Source of the DNA: a virus
Lineage: Duplodnaviria > Heunggongvirae > Uroviricota > Caudoviricetes
Length of the DNA: 42,128 bases
IMG/VR virus record: IMGVR_UViG_2744054914_000003
Reading direction: 5' to 3' (one strand)
Below are positions 13,882 through 18,524 of the stretch, one piece after another. Made by a program: the position numbers and the translations under genes. The notes under the pieces were generated by a model, which searched no databases, had not been told where the DNA came from, and saw only the letters and a list, made by a program, of their open reading frames with translations. Position 1 is the stretch's first letter; every line of letters starts with the position of its first letter.

Positions 13882-16068
13882 ATGTCCGATAGCAAACCAT
13901 GGGGAGCTACGCCTGATGAGTGGTTTCATTTCGACCTGGTATTGGGGCGGACTGCTCATCTTCTCCCAGTTGTATGTAACCCCAGTGCGACCATATCCCC
14001 TGATAGTAAATTGAAAGCGTTGGGTAAGACGCCGAGTCGCTATAACCGGGACCGCCAGGTCACAGGTATTGCTCAATGGACCGGGCATGTTGTTACTGAG
14101 CATGATTTTGCCCGCTGGTCGAATGAACCGGATTATGGCATCTGCGTGCGTACAGGCCATGGCTGGCTGGCGCTGGACTGCGATAGCGAAGATGAAGACA
14201 TTCAGGCAGATATTCGCAAAACACTTGTGCAACTTCTGGGTGAGTCGCCGCCGCGACGCTGGCGAGCAAACAGTAATAAGTGTCTGTATCTGCTGGCCGT
14301 TGATGGTGATTTCCGTAAGCGTATCCATCGCCTGGCGGGGGATATGGGCATTATCGAGTTGCTGGCGAACGGGCAGCAGTTCGTTGCCTGTGGTACGCAC
14401 AGCAGCGGCGCGCGTATTGAATGGGACGGTGGTTTGCCGGATGAACCTCCGGCTATTACAGGTGAGCAGCTTGAAACGCTGTGGCAGCGCCTGGCTGAAC
14501 AACTCCCTGTGTCGGTAACCACCGAAGCGGGCAACACGAAGATGCGCGACCGTTCAGCATTCACGCCCGGCGCGACGGATGATACAGCTGAATATCTTGA
14601 TGCCAATGGCTGGACGCTGCTGGATGGCGCAAACGGTGAACGATATATCCGCTGTCCGTTTGAAGACGGCCACAGTAGCGGAGGCGATCCAACAAGCACA
14701 GTTTATTTTCCTGCGGGAACCGCAGGCTTTGAGCAGGGGCATTTTAAATGCCTGCATGCCAGTTGCGCGCATCGTGATGACGGAGATTTCCTGAATGCCA
14801 TCGGGATCCGCAACGACGATTTCGAAGATCTGACCAGCATCGAAGTGGCGGAACCTTTACCGCTGCCTGCTTTCGAGCGTGATAAATGGGGGCGTATCGA
14901 GGCAACCATCAGCAATGCAGCCAAAGCAGTAGTACGCTCTGATTTTGTGGACATCGATATTCGCTTTGACCAGTTCCGCGACGAAATCATGTTTGCCCCG
15001 GCAGGATCCGGACAATGGCGGGCATTCACCGATGCGGATTATGCGCGCCTGCGCATCACGATGGAAAAGCGGGGATTTAAACCTGTTGGCCGTGAACTTA
15101 TTCGCGATGTGGTGTTACTTGCAGCCGATGAACAACCATTCGATTCAGCGATCACCTGGCTGAACGGACTGGAGTGGGATGGCGTGCCGCGCATCGAATG
15201 TTTCTACCATACGCACTTCGGTACCGCCGACACGCCTTATACCCGTGCGGTGTCTATGTACATGTGGACCGCGTTGGCGGGGCGAGTACTGGAGCCAGGC
15301 ATCAAAGCGGATATGGTGCCGATCCTCGTTGGTCCGCAGGGCTGCGGTAAGTCTTCCGGAGTGGAGGCACTGAGCCCTGATCCTGCGTTTTTTACTGAAA
15401 TCTCTTTTGCCGAAAAAGACGATGATCTCGCTCGAAAAATGCGTGGTCGGCTGGTGGCAGAGATTGGTGAACTGCGCGGACTTAATACCAAAGAGCTGGA
15501 GTCAATCAAAGCGTTTGTGACGCGTACTCACGAAAACTGGATCCCGAAATACCGGGAGTTCGCCACCCAGTTTCCTCGTCGCCTGGTGTTCGTTGGTACC
15601 ACTAATGAGGACGAATTCCTTGCGGACAAGACTGGTAACCGTCGCTGGCTCCCCGTGGAAGTGTCGAAAGTCGACGTGAAAGCGATAAAAAGAGATCTCC
15701 TTTTACTTTGGGCTGAGGCTCGTGAGGTGTTTCAGCGTCTGGGGGGTATCCAGTTCCGTGAGGCTGAACAACTGGCAGCGAGTGTCCATGAACAGTACAC
15801 CATCAAGGATGCTTGGCTTGAAACGGTAGAGAAATGGCTCGACACGCCCGACCTGATGACTAATGAACTTCCGCGAAATTGCGAATTTTTACGCGCAAGT
15901 GATGTTTTGCGTGATGCGATTGGGCTAAATCCTGACCGCATCGGAAAACGCGAAGAAATGCGAATTAGTAATGTTTTGCAAAATTGCGGGTATAAGCGTG
16001 CCCAAAGGCGAATTGGGGGGAAAAAATGCAAGGTTTGGGAACCGCTGGAACCACGCGGAACCACCTAG
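13882..16068 (+). CDS. Replication initiator: Prim-Pol-type primase fused to P-loop NTPase (VirE/D5-like helicase)
   Basis: 728-aa ORF; Walker A (LVGPQGCGKSS) in C-terminal half; N-terminal half with acidic Prim-Pol-like motifs; iterons overlap its 3' end. Confidence 0.75.
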   Translation: MSDSKPWGATPDEWFHFDLVLGRTAHLLPVVCNPSATISPDSKLKALGKTPSRYNRDRQVTGIAQWTGHVVTEHDFARWSNEPDYGICVRTGHGWLALDCDSEDEDIQADIRKTLVQLLGESPPRRWRANSNKCLYLLAVDGDFRKRIHRLAGDMGIIELLANGQQFVACGTHSSGARIEWDGGLPDEPPAITGEQLETLWQRLAEQLPVSVTTEAGNTKMRDRSAFTPGATDDTAEYLDANGWTLLDGANGERYIRCPFEDGHSSGGDPTSTVYFPAGTAGFEQGHFKCLHASCAHRDDGDFLNAIGIRNDDFEDLTSIEVAEPLPLPAFERDKWGRIEATISNAAKAVVRSDFVDIDIRFDQFRDEIMFAPAGSGQWRAFTDADYARLRITMEKRGFKPVGRELIRDVVLLAADEQPFDSAITWLNGLEWDGVPRIECFYHTHFGTADTPYTRAVSMYMWTALAGRVLEPGIKADMVPILVGPQGCGKSSGVEALSPDPAFFTEISFAEKDDDLARKMRGRLVAEIGELRGLNTKELESIKAFVTRTHENWIPKYREFATQFPRRLVFVGTTNEDEFLADKTGNRRWLPVEVSKVDVKAIKRDLLLLWAEAREVFQRLGGIQFREAEQLAASVHEQYTIKDAWLETVEKWLDTPDLMTNELPRNCEFLRASDVLRDAIGLNPDRIGKREEMRISNVLQNCGYKRAQRRIGGKKCKVWEPLEPRGTT

Positions 16069-16227
16069 AAGAGAAGGTGGTTCCACCTTGCAGACCTTGT
16101 GGCAAGCGGGGCGGAACTACTGGAACCACTGGAACCGCCTTTCTACTAGAAACCCCATATATATATATAAGTCGATTGAGGGAAAGGTTAGGAAAAGGTG
16201 GTTCCAGGTGGGGGCAGGTGGTTCCAC
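16038..16227. repeat. Iteron-type replication origin: about 9 copies of GGAACC(A/G)C in both orientations around an (AT)n tract
   Basis: GGAACCAC/GTGGTTCC copies starting at 16047, 16057, 16077, 16123, 16198 and 16218, with variants at 16038, 16114 and 16132; ATATATATATATA at 16157-16170; overlaps and follows the 3' end of the initiator gene. Confidence 0.6.
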
Positions 16228-16356
16228 TCCGAATTAGCAACTTTTTGCATGTTGATACATGCAATATGCGGATCGGAACTGCGTTATCCACACCCACGGA
16301 TAAACAGACGTAGTTCTCAGAAAAATTTTTCGTAGCAAAACGTAGAGGTCAGAGCT

Positions 16357-16791
16357 ATGCGTAATATTCAACAGGTTTTAGAGCGCTGGGGTGGATGGGC
16401 TGCCGATAGCAACACCACAGTGAGCTGGGCTCCAATAGCGGCGGGATTTAAAGGGCTGGTAGTCAGCAGCTCGCCTGGCAGGCTGAGTTGCTGTGACGAC
16501 GATGGCCTGATTATCGATGCTTGCGTCTGTCGGCTGCAGCAGGTCCGTAAGCCTGAGGAACTGGACGTCATTATGCTGTACTACGTCTACGGGTTAAGCA
16601 AACGTGAGATAGGGCGGCGGCGTCGCTGTTCTGAAGGATTTATCCGCCAGCAGTTGCAGGTAGCAGAGGGATTCATTGAGGGGTGTCTCTGCATGCTGGG
16701 TGTGAGCCTTCAGATGGATCCTGAGGTCGAAATTCAAAGGGATGAAAAAAGTATTAGTGCGCTACGCAAAAACTGCGCTACGCTGGTATGA
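16357..16791 (+). CDS. Q-like late antiterminator
   Basis: 144-aa ORF; N-terminus (MRNIQQVLERWGGWAA...AGFKGL...CCDDD) resembles Q proteins of lambdoid E. coli prophages as I recall them; immediately upstream of the lysis cassette. Confidence 0.65.
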   Translation: MRNIQQVLERWGGWAADSNTTVSWAPIAAGFKGLVVSSSPGRLSCCDDDGLIIDACVCRLQQVRKPEELDVIMLYYVYGLSKREIGRRRRCSEGFIRQQLQVAEGFIEGCLCMLGVSLQMDPEVEIQRDEKSISALRKNCATLV

Positions 16792-17070
16792 GTTGAATTT
16801 CTGACCTCAACGAAGAGCTCCAAATCATTGGGGCTTTTTTAATGCTCTATTCTCAGTAAAAGTTAATAAAACAGGGTTTTCGTCGCGAAAAAACGCTATG
16901 CAGTTTTTGCCCTTTTTTATGCACCTCTTATTCACTCGAATTTCGTCATTCTGGACCACTTAAGTTGATTAAATAGGCCTTTCATCGCAAATCTATTGCG
17001 AGCGGTGATCGTGTGGTTCCTATAACATACATTATGTTAAATAACTTCCTTTTTTAACAAATTTAACAAG

Positions 17071-17093
17071 GTTCGCTATGGCGAACTTTTTTT
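17071..17093 (+). terminator. Rho-independent terminator, candidate tR' (late-operon terminator subject to Q antitermination)
   Basis: GTTCGC-TATG-GCGAAC perfect 6-bp stem followed by TTTTTTT, about 280 bp after Q and about 100 bp before the holin. Confidence 0.55.
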
Positions 17094-17194
17094 GTATTCA
17101 GGGCCCACCGAAGGACGGCTCATAACCCAATCCTACGGGCGTATACGCAGGGCCCGCCTTTCAACAACACCCCGTAATGGCGGAGGTGGGAAGT

Positions 17195-17536
17195 ATGAAA
17201 ATGCACAATGCTCCTCATTCCTGGCCTGACTTACTGGAACTCTTACAAAGTTGGTGGCGTGGAGATACGCCGTTGGGCGCAGTGGTTATGTCAATTGTTA
17301 TGGCTGGCTTGCGCATTGCCTATTTTGGCGGTGGCGGCGGCTGGAAACGAAAAACGCTTGAGATTTTGCTCTGTGGTGCTCTGACGCTGACCTTTGCATC
17401 CGCTCTTGAGTATGTTGGATGGCCTAAATCGCTTTCTGTTGCCATTGGTGGTGGTGTTGGGCTGATCGGTGTGGATGCTATTCGTGGGGCTGCAATGCGA
17501 GTAATCGGTAACAAGTTTGGTGGCTCTAAGGAGTAA
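17195..17536 (+). CDS. Holin (lambda S-like, dual-start MKM motif)
   Basis: GGAGGTGGG precedes ATG-AAA-ATG (MKM) like lambda S107/S105; hydrophobic helices; longest ORF begins at 17177. Confidence 0.7.
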   Translation: MKMHNAPHSWPDLLELLQSWWRGDTPLGAVVMSIVMAGLRIAYFGGGGGWKRKTLEILLCGALTLTFASALEYVGWPKSLSVAIGGGVGLIGVDAIRGAAMRVIGNKFGGSKE

Positions 17537-17539
17537 TTC

Positions 17540-18016
17540 ATGCAGACACTAAATTCCCAACGTAAAGCTTTCCTGGATATGGTGGCATGGTCAGAAGGAA
17601 CGGATAACGGGCGACAACCGACACGTAATCACGGTTATGACGTTATCGTCGGAGGTGAGTTGTTCACTGATTACTCCGATCACCCTCGCAAACTTGTCAC
17701 GCTAAACCCGAAGCTTAAATCAACAGCCGCAGGACGGTATCAGCTTCTTTCACGCTGGTGGGATGCCTACCGTAAGCAGCTTGGCCTGAAAGATTTTTCG
17801 CCAGAAAGTCAGGACGCTGTGGCGCTGCAGCAGATTAAAGAGCGTGGCGCTTTACCGATGATTGACCGTGGCGATATTCGTCAGGCAATCGACCGTTGCA
17901 GCAATATCTGGGCGTCGTTACCTGGTGCAGGTTACGGTCAGTATGAACATAAAATCGGTGACCTGATTTCCAGGTTTAAAGATGCTGGTGGGGTGGTAAA
18001 TGAAGCTGACTTATAA
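17540..18016 (+). CDS. R: Endolysin, lambda R-like lytic transglycosylase
   Basis: 158-aa protein near-identical over long stretches to lambda R as recalled (NSQRKAFLDMVAWSEGTDNGRQPTRNHGYDVIVGGELFTDYSDHPRKLVTLNPKLKST); AAGGAG ribosome-binding site. Confidence 0.9.
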   Translation: MQTLNSQRKAFLDMVAWSEGTDNGRQPTRNHGYDVIVGGELFTDYSDHPRKLVTLNPKLKSTAAGRYQLLSRWWDAYRKQLGLKDFSPESQDAVALQQIKERGALPMIDRGDIRQAIDRCSNIWASLPGAGYGQYEHKIGDLISRFKDAGGVVNEADL

Positions 18017-18524
18017 GATTGTCATCGCGGCATTTTTCTTCTCTGCCTTTGGGGCGCTCGTCTGGTCTGCAAACCATTACCACAGCAAGTATCAGGCAGA
18101 AAAGTTGCGGGCTGATAAAGCGGAAGGTGAAGCTGAATATCAAGGGAAAGTGATAGCTAATCAGGCATTAAACTTCAATCGTTTTAACCAGATAGCAGAA
18201 AACGCAAGCCGATTAAATTCTCTGGTCGACATCGGTCACGAGAAGACAGTCATCAAATACCGTGAGGTTCTGCTCCGTGAAAAGAACTGTGATTTCCCTG
18301 TTCCTGTTGATATTGCTGTCGGGTTGCTCAACTACGCGAACCGTTTACGCGCCAGCGCATTGCACGCCGATTCCGGGGACATTGACTCAGCCGGTGATCG
18401 TGCCACTACCACCAGAACGTTGACATATTGCCAGGCTGTTCTGTGGATTAACCCACTGTTGGCGGCCATCGAGAAGGCGAATAACCAGTTGGCTGGTGTC
18501 CGACAAATAGAACAGTCCCGGTAA
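18000..18524 (+). CDS. Rz-like inner-membrane spanin
   Basis: 174-aa ORF overlapping the endolysin stop; N-terminal hydrophobic helix then coiled-coil periplasmic domain; contains embedded Rz1. Confidence 0.7.
   Translation: MKLTYKIVIAAFFFSAFGALVWSANHYHSKYQAEKLRADKAEGEAEYQGKVIANQALNFNRFNQIAENASRLNSLVDIGHEKTVIKYREVLLREKNCDFPVPVDIAVGLLNYANRLRASALHADSGDIDSAGDRATTTRTLTYCQAVLWINPLLAAIEKANNQLAGVRQIEQSR
18277..18423 (+). CDS. Rz1-like outer-membrane lipoprotein spanin, embedded in +1 frame of Rz
   Basis: 48-codon ORF found by hand translation, GTG start; signal peptide with lipobox LLSGC; Pro-rich mature part (PIPGTLTQPVIVPLPPER); below the 60-aa cutoff of the supplied track. Confidence 0.65.
   Translation: MKRTVISLFLLILLSGCSTTRTVYAPAHCTPIPGTLTQPVIVPLPPER

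Follow-up and report, generated by a model that had tools for sequence, protein, structure and literature searches.

The interval between the Q antiterminator gene and the holin gene of an Escherichia coli myovirus-type prophage is a probable composite of a Q-linked cassette, a psi/cer-like Xer module and a second terminator

The interval between the Q antiterminator gene and the holin gene in the tailed-phage record IMGVR_UViG_2744054914_000003 (42,128 nucleotides; this whole stretch is called the window here) is most likely a composite of three units with separate histories. The unit inherited together with Q, in relatives down to 45% identity, is a cassette that lies over the Q stop codon and ends in the first terminator (t1). 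This cassette, at 16757–16840, is most likely the late control region itself, i.e., the pR'/qut/tR' unit, with a predicted terminated RNA of about 50–55 nt. Downstream of it lie a module with a dif/psi-like core for the host recombinases XerC and XerD (16858–17042) and a second hairpin terminator (t2) ahead of the holin gene. A sequence-only reading of this locus had described a lambda-style late leader unit, with a late promoter inside the gap and the hairpin at 17071–17093 as its terminator tR'. The Q family, the gene order and a short terminated leader as the expected design all stand, whereas the promoter inside the gap and the identity of 17071–17093 as tR' are not upheld, as the gap is not co-inherited with the Q allele. 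This hairpin is probably not tR'; the late switch most likely lies some 250 bases upstream of it, where the Q gene ends.

The gene upstream of the gap truly belongs to the Q21/Q933W family of Q antiterminators. It occupies 16357–16791 on the + strand, encodes 144 amino acids and matches Pfam PF06530 (Phage_antitermQ; E 1.1e-50), which corresponds to the Q21/Q933W family (Yin et al. preprint). It also matches PHROG 79, 'anti-termination protein Q-like', and carries the RefSeq name 'antiterminator Q family protein'. The match to the solved Q21 chains 6p18/6jnx is weak (E 1.4e-4, 28% identity); the window Q has an ordinary sigma-region-4-like helix-turn-helix without the long loop of Q21, and its recognition helix is SEGFIRQQLQVAEGF. 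The assignments of a Q-like gene upstream and a holin downstream (PF05106) in the earlier reading are thus borne out. The non-coding interval between them, given there as 385 bp, is 403 bp long (16792–17194), because the RefSeq holin start is at 17195.

Comparison with retrieved relative loci (numbered L001 onward) separates the Q cassette from the rest of the gap. The gap was found in 142 of 5426 complete E. coli genomes, and among the matches listed most E. coli records start matching only at window position ~16830. In E. coli prophages with a second Q allele, which is 44% identical to the window Q and carries the recognition helix SHTHVLKRLQAAEGF instead of SEGFIRQQLQVAEGF, the gap from ~16858 on is 97–99% identical to the window. 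Conversely, locus L071 encodes a 98.6% identical Q followed by t1, but the stretch from ~16858 is absent. The Q cassette therefore ends at t1, because the L071 sequence departs after t1. Because the gap occurs together with a Q of 44% identity and is missing where Q is 98.6% identical, it is not inherited along with Q. A Q protein has to co-evolve with the site at which it is loaded, so the shared part of the gap is an unlikely place for that cognate site.

The second Q allele (L001 1526–2130, L002 1626–2421 and L003) is carried by most E. coli carriers among the matches listed. There, Q is followed by an open reading frame (ORF) of 113 amino acids (WP_001174014; PHROG matches 'unknown' and 'head closure'), and the allele has its own TGGAATTCCA cassette and terminator, followed by the same Xer module as in the window. 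The exchange boundaries fall within the Q N-terminus and at ACGAAGAG before the terminator. In L071 (2435–2810), the Q cassette is joined to a tRNA-like sequence and an S21-type (phage-21-type) pinholin (MKSMDKISTGIAYG...).

The cassette on the + strand begins within the last Q codons. A sequence resembling a Q-binding element (QBE), GTGCGCTACGCAAAAA (16757–16772), consists of the palindrome GCG-CTA-CGC (16759–16767) followed by an A run, and in the alignment it sits where the phage 21 QBE sits relative to the TAAG motif. A second TGCGCTACGC copy (16774–16783) overlaps two −10-like elements, TACGCT (16779–16784) and TGgTATGAG (16784–16792), the latter running across the TGA stop at 16789–16791; by motif reading, 16774–16792 is a candidate for the pR' −10 element plus a sigma-dependent pause element. 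In the alignment, TATGAG (TAAGAG in relatives) stands opposite TAAGCTG, the pause element mapped at +2 to +8 of phage 21; a −10-like pause element thus appears to be present in the predicted initial transcribed region. The following stretch, TTGAATTTCTGACCTCAAC (16793–16811), is nearly invariant in an alignment of 13 relatives and forms a small 5-bp hairpin in the fold of 16786–16846. Their Q proteins are 78–100% identical, yet this stretch hardly varies, so its conservation exceeds that of the coding sequence. From these motifs we infer promoter activity and Q binding, and the start site would be at about 16786–16791, as two possible frames leave ±5 nt.

The same architecture recurs among Q homologues. 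We compared the region around the Q stop in about 120 non-redundant homologues, drawn from 80 viral contigs and from 61 loci in bacterial genomes, and scored 119 loci by pattern. The shared order is a short palindrome with an A/T run, ~13 nt, TAnnnT, two bases and TAAGAG (TATGAG in the window), then 25–45 nt and a GC hairpin with a T run. A strict version of the central pattern, TAnnnT-SN-TA[ATC][GC][ATC][GT] at the Q stop, was present in 50 of the 119 loci; a terminator follows it in 47 of these 50, mostly ending 47–64 nt past the motif, and TAnnnT stands at the candidate promoter position in every motif-bearing locus examined. The palindrome sequence varies with the Q recognition helix across 8 helix classes. 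GCGCTACGC accompanies the helix IRQQxQVAEGF, GCGTGTCGC the helix SEMEVRRRISIAEGF, GCGGGyCGC the helices SEREIRRV and SEREVRRL, TTCGTwACGAA the helix CSEGKxR..AETF, GTAATTAC the helix ISHNEV.KRLQAAEGF, and TGGAATTCCA the helix VSHTxVLKRLQAAEGF of the second E. coli allele. L006 belongs to the first of these classes: its Q shares only 65% identity and its copy of the element is non-coding, yet it combines this same element with the IRQQxQVAEGF helix.

The cassette ends in t1 (16812–16840, + strand), the proposed tR', with the core GCUCCAA/UUGGGGC (16817–16834) and six U residues (16835–16840). Its stem (16812–16839) folds at −14.3 kcal/mol (z −4.1), and none of 200 shuffles was as stable. This hairpin is stronger than the one at 17071–17093, was not mentioned in the earlier reading and was not listed by the consensus terminator scan; because of a U.G pair, it is specific to the + strand. 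Relatives have hairpins of differing sequence at the t1 position, with energies of −14 to −21 kcal/mol except in L071 (−6.9 kcal/mol). In L071, L087 and L094, t1 is the first terminator 3' of Q, and in L087 and L094 an ORF comes directly next. An intrinsic terminator soon downstream is thus inherited with Q and is kept when the downstream genes change.

The second unit ends at its right in a dif/psi-like core on the + strand (17015–17042), composed of the XerC arm GGTTCCTATAA (17015–17025), the centre CATACA (17026–17031) and the XerD arm TTATGTTAAAT (17032–17042). The E. coli dif sequence, GGTGCGCATAA-TGTATA-TTATGTTAAAT, was checked by a 28-mer search, which found one copy per chromosome in 5220 of 5426 E. 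coli genomes. The window core agrees with dif at 19 of 22 arm positions, including all 11 of the XerD arm; it is the sole such site in the window, and none of 20 shuffles yields one. A pattern search of viral contigs with block 1 of the module (~185 bp) recovered copies in more than 120 contigs, one copy each. In all, the module is single-copy per contig in more than 130 phage contigs, where it mostly lies between the terS stop and the terL start, and in these terS-terL copies terL is 80–90% identical to that of the window while terS is diverse. The dif-like core is present in 131 of 137 module copies, with the consensus GGTGCGGGTAA-CGTCCA-TTATGTTAAAT. Of 28 distinct cores, 26 have the invariant XerD arm; the XerC arm agrees at 6–10 of 11 positions and the centre is variable, which is the pattern of real Xer sites. 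We infer Xer recombination at this core.

Upstream of the XerC arm, and only there, the accessory region (16858–17014, + strand) is conserved as primary sequence in 40 diverged copies, with the blocks AAAAGTTAATAAAACAGGG, CTATGCA, TTTTATGCACCTCTTATTCA (16915–16934) and GCGAG. Diverged Q-adjacent copies align in two near-invariant blocks with variable sequence between them. No consensus RNA fold of the module was obtained on either strand from the 40 diverged copies, the covariation term being 0. In 129 of 131 copies, block 1 is 90 bp (n = 41) or 100 bp (n = 88) away from the XerC arm (module copies in L149–L268); these spacings are one helical turn apart, as expected for a phased nucleoprotein complex. 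Additionally, the 40 nt beside the core were compared in register with psi of pSC101. Window-type copies (L003 and L160) are identical at 23 of 40 positions and the copies listed at 19–24, against a mean of 10 and a maximum of 20 for 5000 random 40-mers. Scored as an ARG box, block 1 reaches 13/18 in the window and 13–14/18 in relatives, and the genuine cer box 14/18; the left half-site of block 1 is 1 bp out of register, and the match is no more than suggestive. AGTTAATAAA presumably resembles an ArcA box. The window contains no second copy of the module motifs. Almost all module copies lie mid-contig, and the analysis of contig ends was uninformative.

The third unit is t2 (17068–17093, + strand), where the earlier reading had correctly noted GTTCGC (17071–17076), the loop TATG (17077–17080), GCGAAC (17081–17086) and seven T residues (17087–17093). 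By the consensus scan, the stem reaches 9 pairs (17068–17089). The hairpin alone folds at −10.4 kcal/mol versus −3.3 ± 1.6 for shuffles (z −4.4), and none of 200 shuffles was as stable. In 15500–18500, 2 terminator-like sites were found versus 3.5 expected, so the bare pattern is not above chance, and the case for t2 is carried by fold energy and context. The hairpin begins 25 nt past the XerD arm. Among 67 distinct contexts 3' of the core, 35 abut the terL ribosome-binding site or start, 20 are followed by other ORFs or unknown sequence, and 12 have a terminator within 80 nt of the core, formed by at least 5 unrelated hairpin sequences. t2 thus resembles an add-on, present when no gene directly follows the module. 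In L086, L072, L073 and L082–L084, ORFs of 187 amino acids (MGVGMDVAIICASGPS...) and 298 amino acids replace the holin ~270 nt past the Q stop, and no terminator lies between the Xer core and the 187-amino-acid ORF.

The best explanation of the whole gap, which we regard as probable, assigns each unit its own function. Q would bind the palindrome GCGCTACGC in the cassette over its own gene end (16757–16840), while RNA polymerase would start at ~16786–16791, pause at the −10-like TATGAG and take on Q. Without Q, polymerase would stop at t1 and leave an RNA of ~50–55 nt. The second unit would be a psi/cer-type multimer-resolution site (16858–17042). Its 28-bp core would be the substrate of host XerC/XerD, and the 150 bp upstream would be expected to be wrapped by accessory proteins (PepA together with ArcA or ArgR); Xer resolution would turn circular multimers of the phage genome into monomers. 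The third unit, t2, would serve as a backup to t1 and keep transcription that arises in the Xer site or crosses it from entering the holin gene. Once modified by Q, polymerase would pass both terminators and the Xer site between them and go on to transcribe the lysis and terminase genes. The sequence features, conservation, linkage patterns and fold energies behind these steps were observed directly.

Several results weigh against this explanation. The window cassette is weak as a sigma-70 promoter in the weight matrix and has no recognisable −35; its −10 candidates, by weight matrix and hand scoring, are TACGCT, TGCGCT or TGgTATGAG. The consensus scan of 15500–18500 detected no promoter on the + strand, although, judged from the rule of the scan, pR' of phage 21 would likewise fail it. 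The strict motif was unmatched in 69 of the 119 loci. Physical linkage confounds the relation between helix and palindrome, the element being part of the Q gene or adjacent to it. The putative element of the window is a 9-bp palindrome with an A run, not the two 8-bp direct repeats of phage 21. In the second unit, the XerC arm agrees with dif at 8 of 11 positions and the centre at 3 of 6, and no accessory-protein site was clearly identifiable in the module by the ARG-box scan. That multimers need resolving is presumed, because the prophage integrates via its own integrase.

The model of the earlier reading, with a late promoter in the gap just 5' of the hairpin, tR' at 17071–17093 and a leader of ~50–60 nt ending at 17093, is quite unlikely. 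Its promoter candidates are TTGCGA-19 bp-TATAAC (16996–17026), followed by the −10-like CATTAT and TTAAAT. In the promoter prediction that this reading called for, the top + strand weight-matrix matches of the gap were TTGCGA/TATAAC and GTGATC/TACATT, with scores of 6.5 and 6.4, which count in its favour; the consensus scan found none on that strand. A run of −10-like hexamers does precede the hairpin, which is itself a good terminator, and a ~48-nt leader, as in phage 21, is normal for this Q family. However, the presumed −10 and pause elements within the gap are the XerC arm, centre and XerD arm of the dif-like core, invariant in more than 130 phages whatever their Q; most copies have GATAAC or GGTAAC in place of TATAAC, and the candidate spacer measures 19 bp. 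The region is common to a Q allele with a different recognition helix, absent behind the 98.6% identical Q, and in most phages placed between terS and terL without a terminator. A small RNA in the manner of Rcd, made when the site is in a particular (multimer) state, is unlikely as well and could coexist with the three-unit explanation. In this case, a promoter in the Xer module would fire rightward through the core and 17071–17093 would terminate the transcript, the direction of Rcd relative to the cer core being as we presume it. The precedent is cer, where the promoter Pcer inside the site makes Rcd (PMC4393325). Weak + strand promoter candidates lie upstream of the core, and cores without an immediate gene start often have a terminator 23–33 nt past the XerD arm, built from at least 5 unrelated hairpins. 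Yet the candidate promoter hexamers are not conserved among module variants, no Rfam match was obtained, and the 35 contexts in which the core abuts terL have no terminator.

A leftward transcript, by which a minus-strand promoter would produce a ~160-nt antisense RNA across the accessory region toward Q, is very unlikely. The best sigma-70 match of the gap is indeed on the minus strand (−35 TTGTTA at 17060–17055, an 18-bp spacer and −10 CATAAT at 17036–17031); its score of 9.6 exceeds 9.29, the 99th percentile of the candidate promoters scored in the window, the consensus scan of 15500–18500 reported just one other promoter-like site besides it, and both hexamers are invariant in 12 aligned Q-adjacent copies. 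However, CATAAT is conserved for another reason, because it is the reverse of the XerD arm and centre, and the site probably arises as a side effect of the Xer core sequence. In the terS-terL copies, its −35 reads TTCCTC; the predicted leftward RNA has a fold no more stable than that of shuffles (z 0.02), and the inverted repeat found at its end forms no stable hairpin (z 0.08 and 1.7). It is still harder to believe that the module is a DNA packaging site (cos or pac) for terminase that the hairpin merely flanks. The single copy, the fixed orientation and the position, mostly exactly between the terS stop and the terL start with an 80–90% identical terL, would suit such a site. The reading is disfavoured because no trace of the module exists in Salmonella phage SEN34, whose TerL is 95% identical. 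Moreover, the blocks are invariant although the DNA-binding parts of terS vary widely (no match or ~25% identity), a textbook XerC/XerD core similar to psi forms the right end, and the terS-linked module of Yersinia phage YP3 lies ~15 kb from terL.

Other candidate readings were tried and rejected. The block 1 inverted repeat as a bidirectional terminator had z of 0.08 and 1.7, with uncompensated mismatches. Read as a late promoter, with TATGTTAAAT as an extended −10, the module varies at −7 and lacks a conserved −35. The start of the phage EKP1 record inside the module is not a physical end, the record being circular and merely starting upstream of terL. The module as the attachment site of a mobile element that uses Xer for its integration (IMEX) was discarded, as the prophage has its own tyrosine integrase, lies beside yfhL and has a centre matching dif at 3 of 6 positions. 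In SEN34 (L271 38598–38997), the 95% identical TerL occurs together with a lambda-type Q, whose leader contains CCAACGATGGGTTA, a sequence that we take to be close to the lambda pR' start region. By eye, two hairpin-plus-T-run sequences lie between its Q and holin.

Related cores also occur outside the integrating phages. A psi-like site, GGTGCCGATAA-CGTCCA-TTATGTTAAAT, is nearly identical in RepA plasmids (L273 2600–2910) and in the Yersinia phage-plasmid vB_YpM_39 (L147 1380–1620); the E. coli RepA plasmids are 47–49 kb, and vB_YpM_39 is circular and 49 kb. In these elements, the site lies between two small ORFs and a higBA toxin-antitoxin pair, and the distribution suggests that maintenance modules are exchanged between phage-plasmids and integrating phages. 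Yersinia phage YP3 (L148 1460–1760) has the module and its own terminator after a terS-like gene, with the terL homologue ~15 kb away. We propose tentatively, with slightly more doubt than belief, that integrating Q-regulated enterobacterial tailed phages carry in the late operon a psi/cer-type Xer site with phased accessory DNA, flanked in the window by t1 and t2, and recruit XerCD (with PepA, ArcA or ArgR) to keep their circular genomes monomeric, the site having probably been exchanged with phage-plasmids. The literature on Xer sites, within our incomplete coverage, describes them in filamentous, microvirus-like and non-tailed phages and in plasmids, and none in integrating tailed phages.

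The prophage is of the myovirus type, with tail sheath and baseplate genes, and is integrated beside yfhL according to the RefSeq annotation of an identical E. coli prophage; it encodes its own tyrosine integrase, a DNA polymerase and a VapE primase. The rightward gene order is helix-turn-helix (cro-like), VapE primase, Q, holin, endolysin, Rz, terS, terL, head and tail. Q is the last gene of the cro-like/primase early operon, and the genes from holin to terL are directly downstream. The holin (17195–17536, + strand; PF05106, E 1.2e-27; PHROG 126) is of the lambda family and is the first late gene. It has an MKM dual start, with ATG at 17195 and 17201, as in lambda S107/S105, and an earlier-listed ORF start at 17177 overlaps its ribosome-binding site. 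The 5' untranslated region of the holin gene (17094–17194, + strand) has GGAGG at 17182–17186 and two GGGCCC copies, at about 17100 and 17152, which pair in the predicted fold; it is partly conserved in L076 and L081. The RNA fold of the whole gap has a z of −3.2, for which the terminators account, and a scan of 15500–18500 with Rfam 15 covariance models at E up to 10 returned only sub-threshold chance matches. An origin-like region (16031–16292) lies between the VapE primase gene and Q; it contains GGAACC(A/G)C about ten times, with both orientations represented, (TA)6 at 16158–16169, an 8-bp inverted repeat TTGCATGT/ACATGCAA at 16245–16264 and a perfect DnaA-box sequence TTATCCACA at 16284–16292.

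If the three-unit explanation holds, the late switch has to be placed at the Q stop codon in the prophage group found in 142 of 5426 complete E. coli genomes, and the constitutive short RNA to be expected is one of ~50–55 nt ending near 16840 rather than one ending at 17093. A search for a StxS-like RNA, or a Q reporter, based on the earlier coordinates would clone the wrong fragment. The late-leader concept is textbook, and the cassette is a further member of the Q21-type family, with a palindromic element instead of direct repeats. An allele-specific palindrome where Q21 has direct repeats would point to variation in the way Q locates its promoter. Elements like the psi-like site are known, but here the site is unusually placed and is the unexpected part of the locus; an Xer site in more than 130 tailed-phage contigs would tie the maintenance of these phage genomes to host Xer.

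The published QBE positions of phage 21, −21/−13 (PMC6606751), reproduce the annotated start site. In this experimentally mapped reference, the −35 TTGACA begins 6 bp past the Q stop, QBEu and QBEd are ATTGAGCA and AATGAGCA, the pause element TAAGCTG occupies +2 to +8, and the terminator gives a leader of ~48 nt. The window resembles phage 21 in that both Q proteins are of one family (PF06530), the candidate control region begins at the Q stop codon, a putative Q-specific element lies ~12–27 bp 5' of the putative start, a TAAG-type −10-like element comes right after the start, and a terminator would give a leader of ~50 nt. In contrast, the window Q is 28% identical and lacks the long helix-turn[loop]-helix insertion, the window has no consensus −35, and the Q coding sequence contains the element together with part of the −10 region.

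The likeness to the 6S RNA of lambda pR'-tR' and to StxS would lie in a constitutive late promoter that is terminated nearby in the lysogen to give a short RNA; the lambda pR'-tR' leader is ~194 nt. StxS of Stx phages is a functional Hfq-binding regulator from pR' (PMC7547250). The Stx leader is ~258 nt (PMC7547250), whereas the window prediction is ~50–55 nt.

Plasmid multimer-resolution sites combine a core with accessory DNA on the XerC side, which is wrapped by PepA with ArgR or ArcA and enforces resolution (PMC5357621; bioRxiv 2026.02.23.706985). We read the cer and psi cores from the ColE1 and pSC101 records. Psi is similar to the window site in its 11-6-11 bp core, in the XerD arm (TTATGTTAAA-, matching at 10 of 11 positions) and in ~150 bp of accessory DNA on the XerC side (architecture: bioRxiv 2026.02.23.706985). 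However, psi is on a plasmid while the window site belongs to the late operon of a tailed prophage that integrates, the distal accessory blocks show no similarity, no ArcA site is assignable in the window, and the XerC arm (GGTTCCTATAA) is more diverged. Similarly, cer of ColE1 joins a core to ~180 bp of accessory DNA with an ArgR box ~100 bp upstream (PMC5357621), and block 1, TGCAC-N5-ATTCA, resembles the cer box TGCAT-N4-ATTCA, at 96 bp from the XerC arm versus 115 bp in cer. The cer centre is 8 bp and its XerD arm is TTATGGTAAAT, the half-site spacing of the window box is one base longer, and no Pcer-like promoter is conserved in the module. IMEX phages (CTX-phi, VGJ-phi and TLC-phi) also have a phage-borne dif-like site that uses host XerCD (PMC5357621), but they are filamentous phages without an integrase that integrate at dif, and their sites have no long accessory region.

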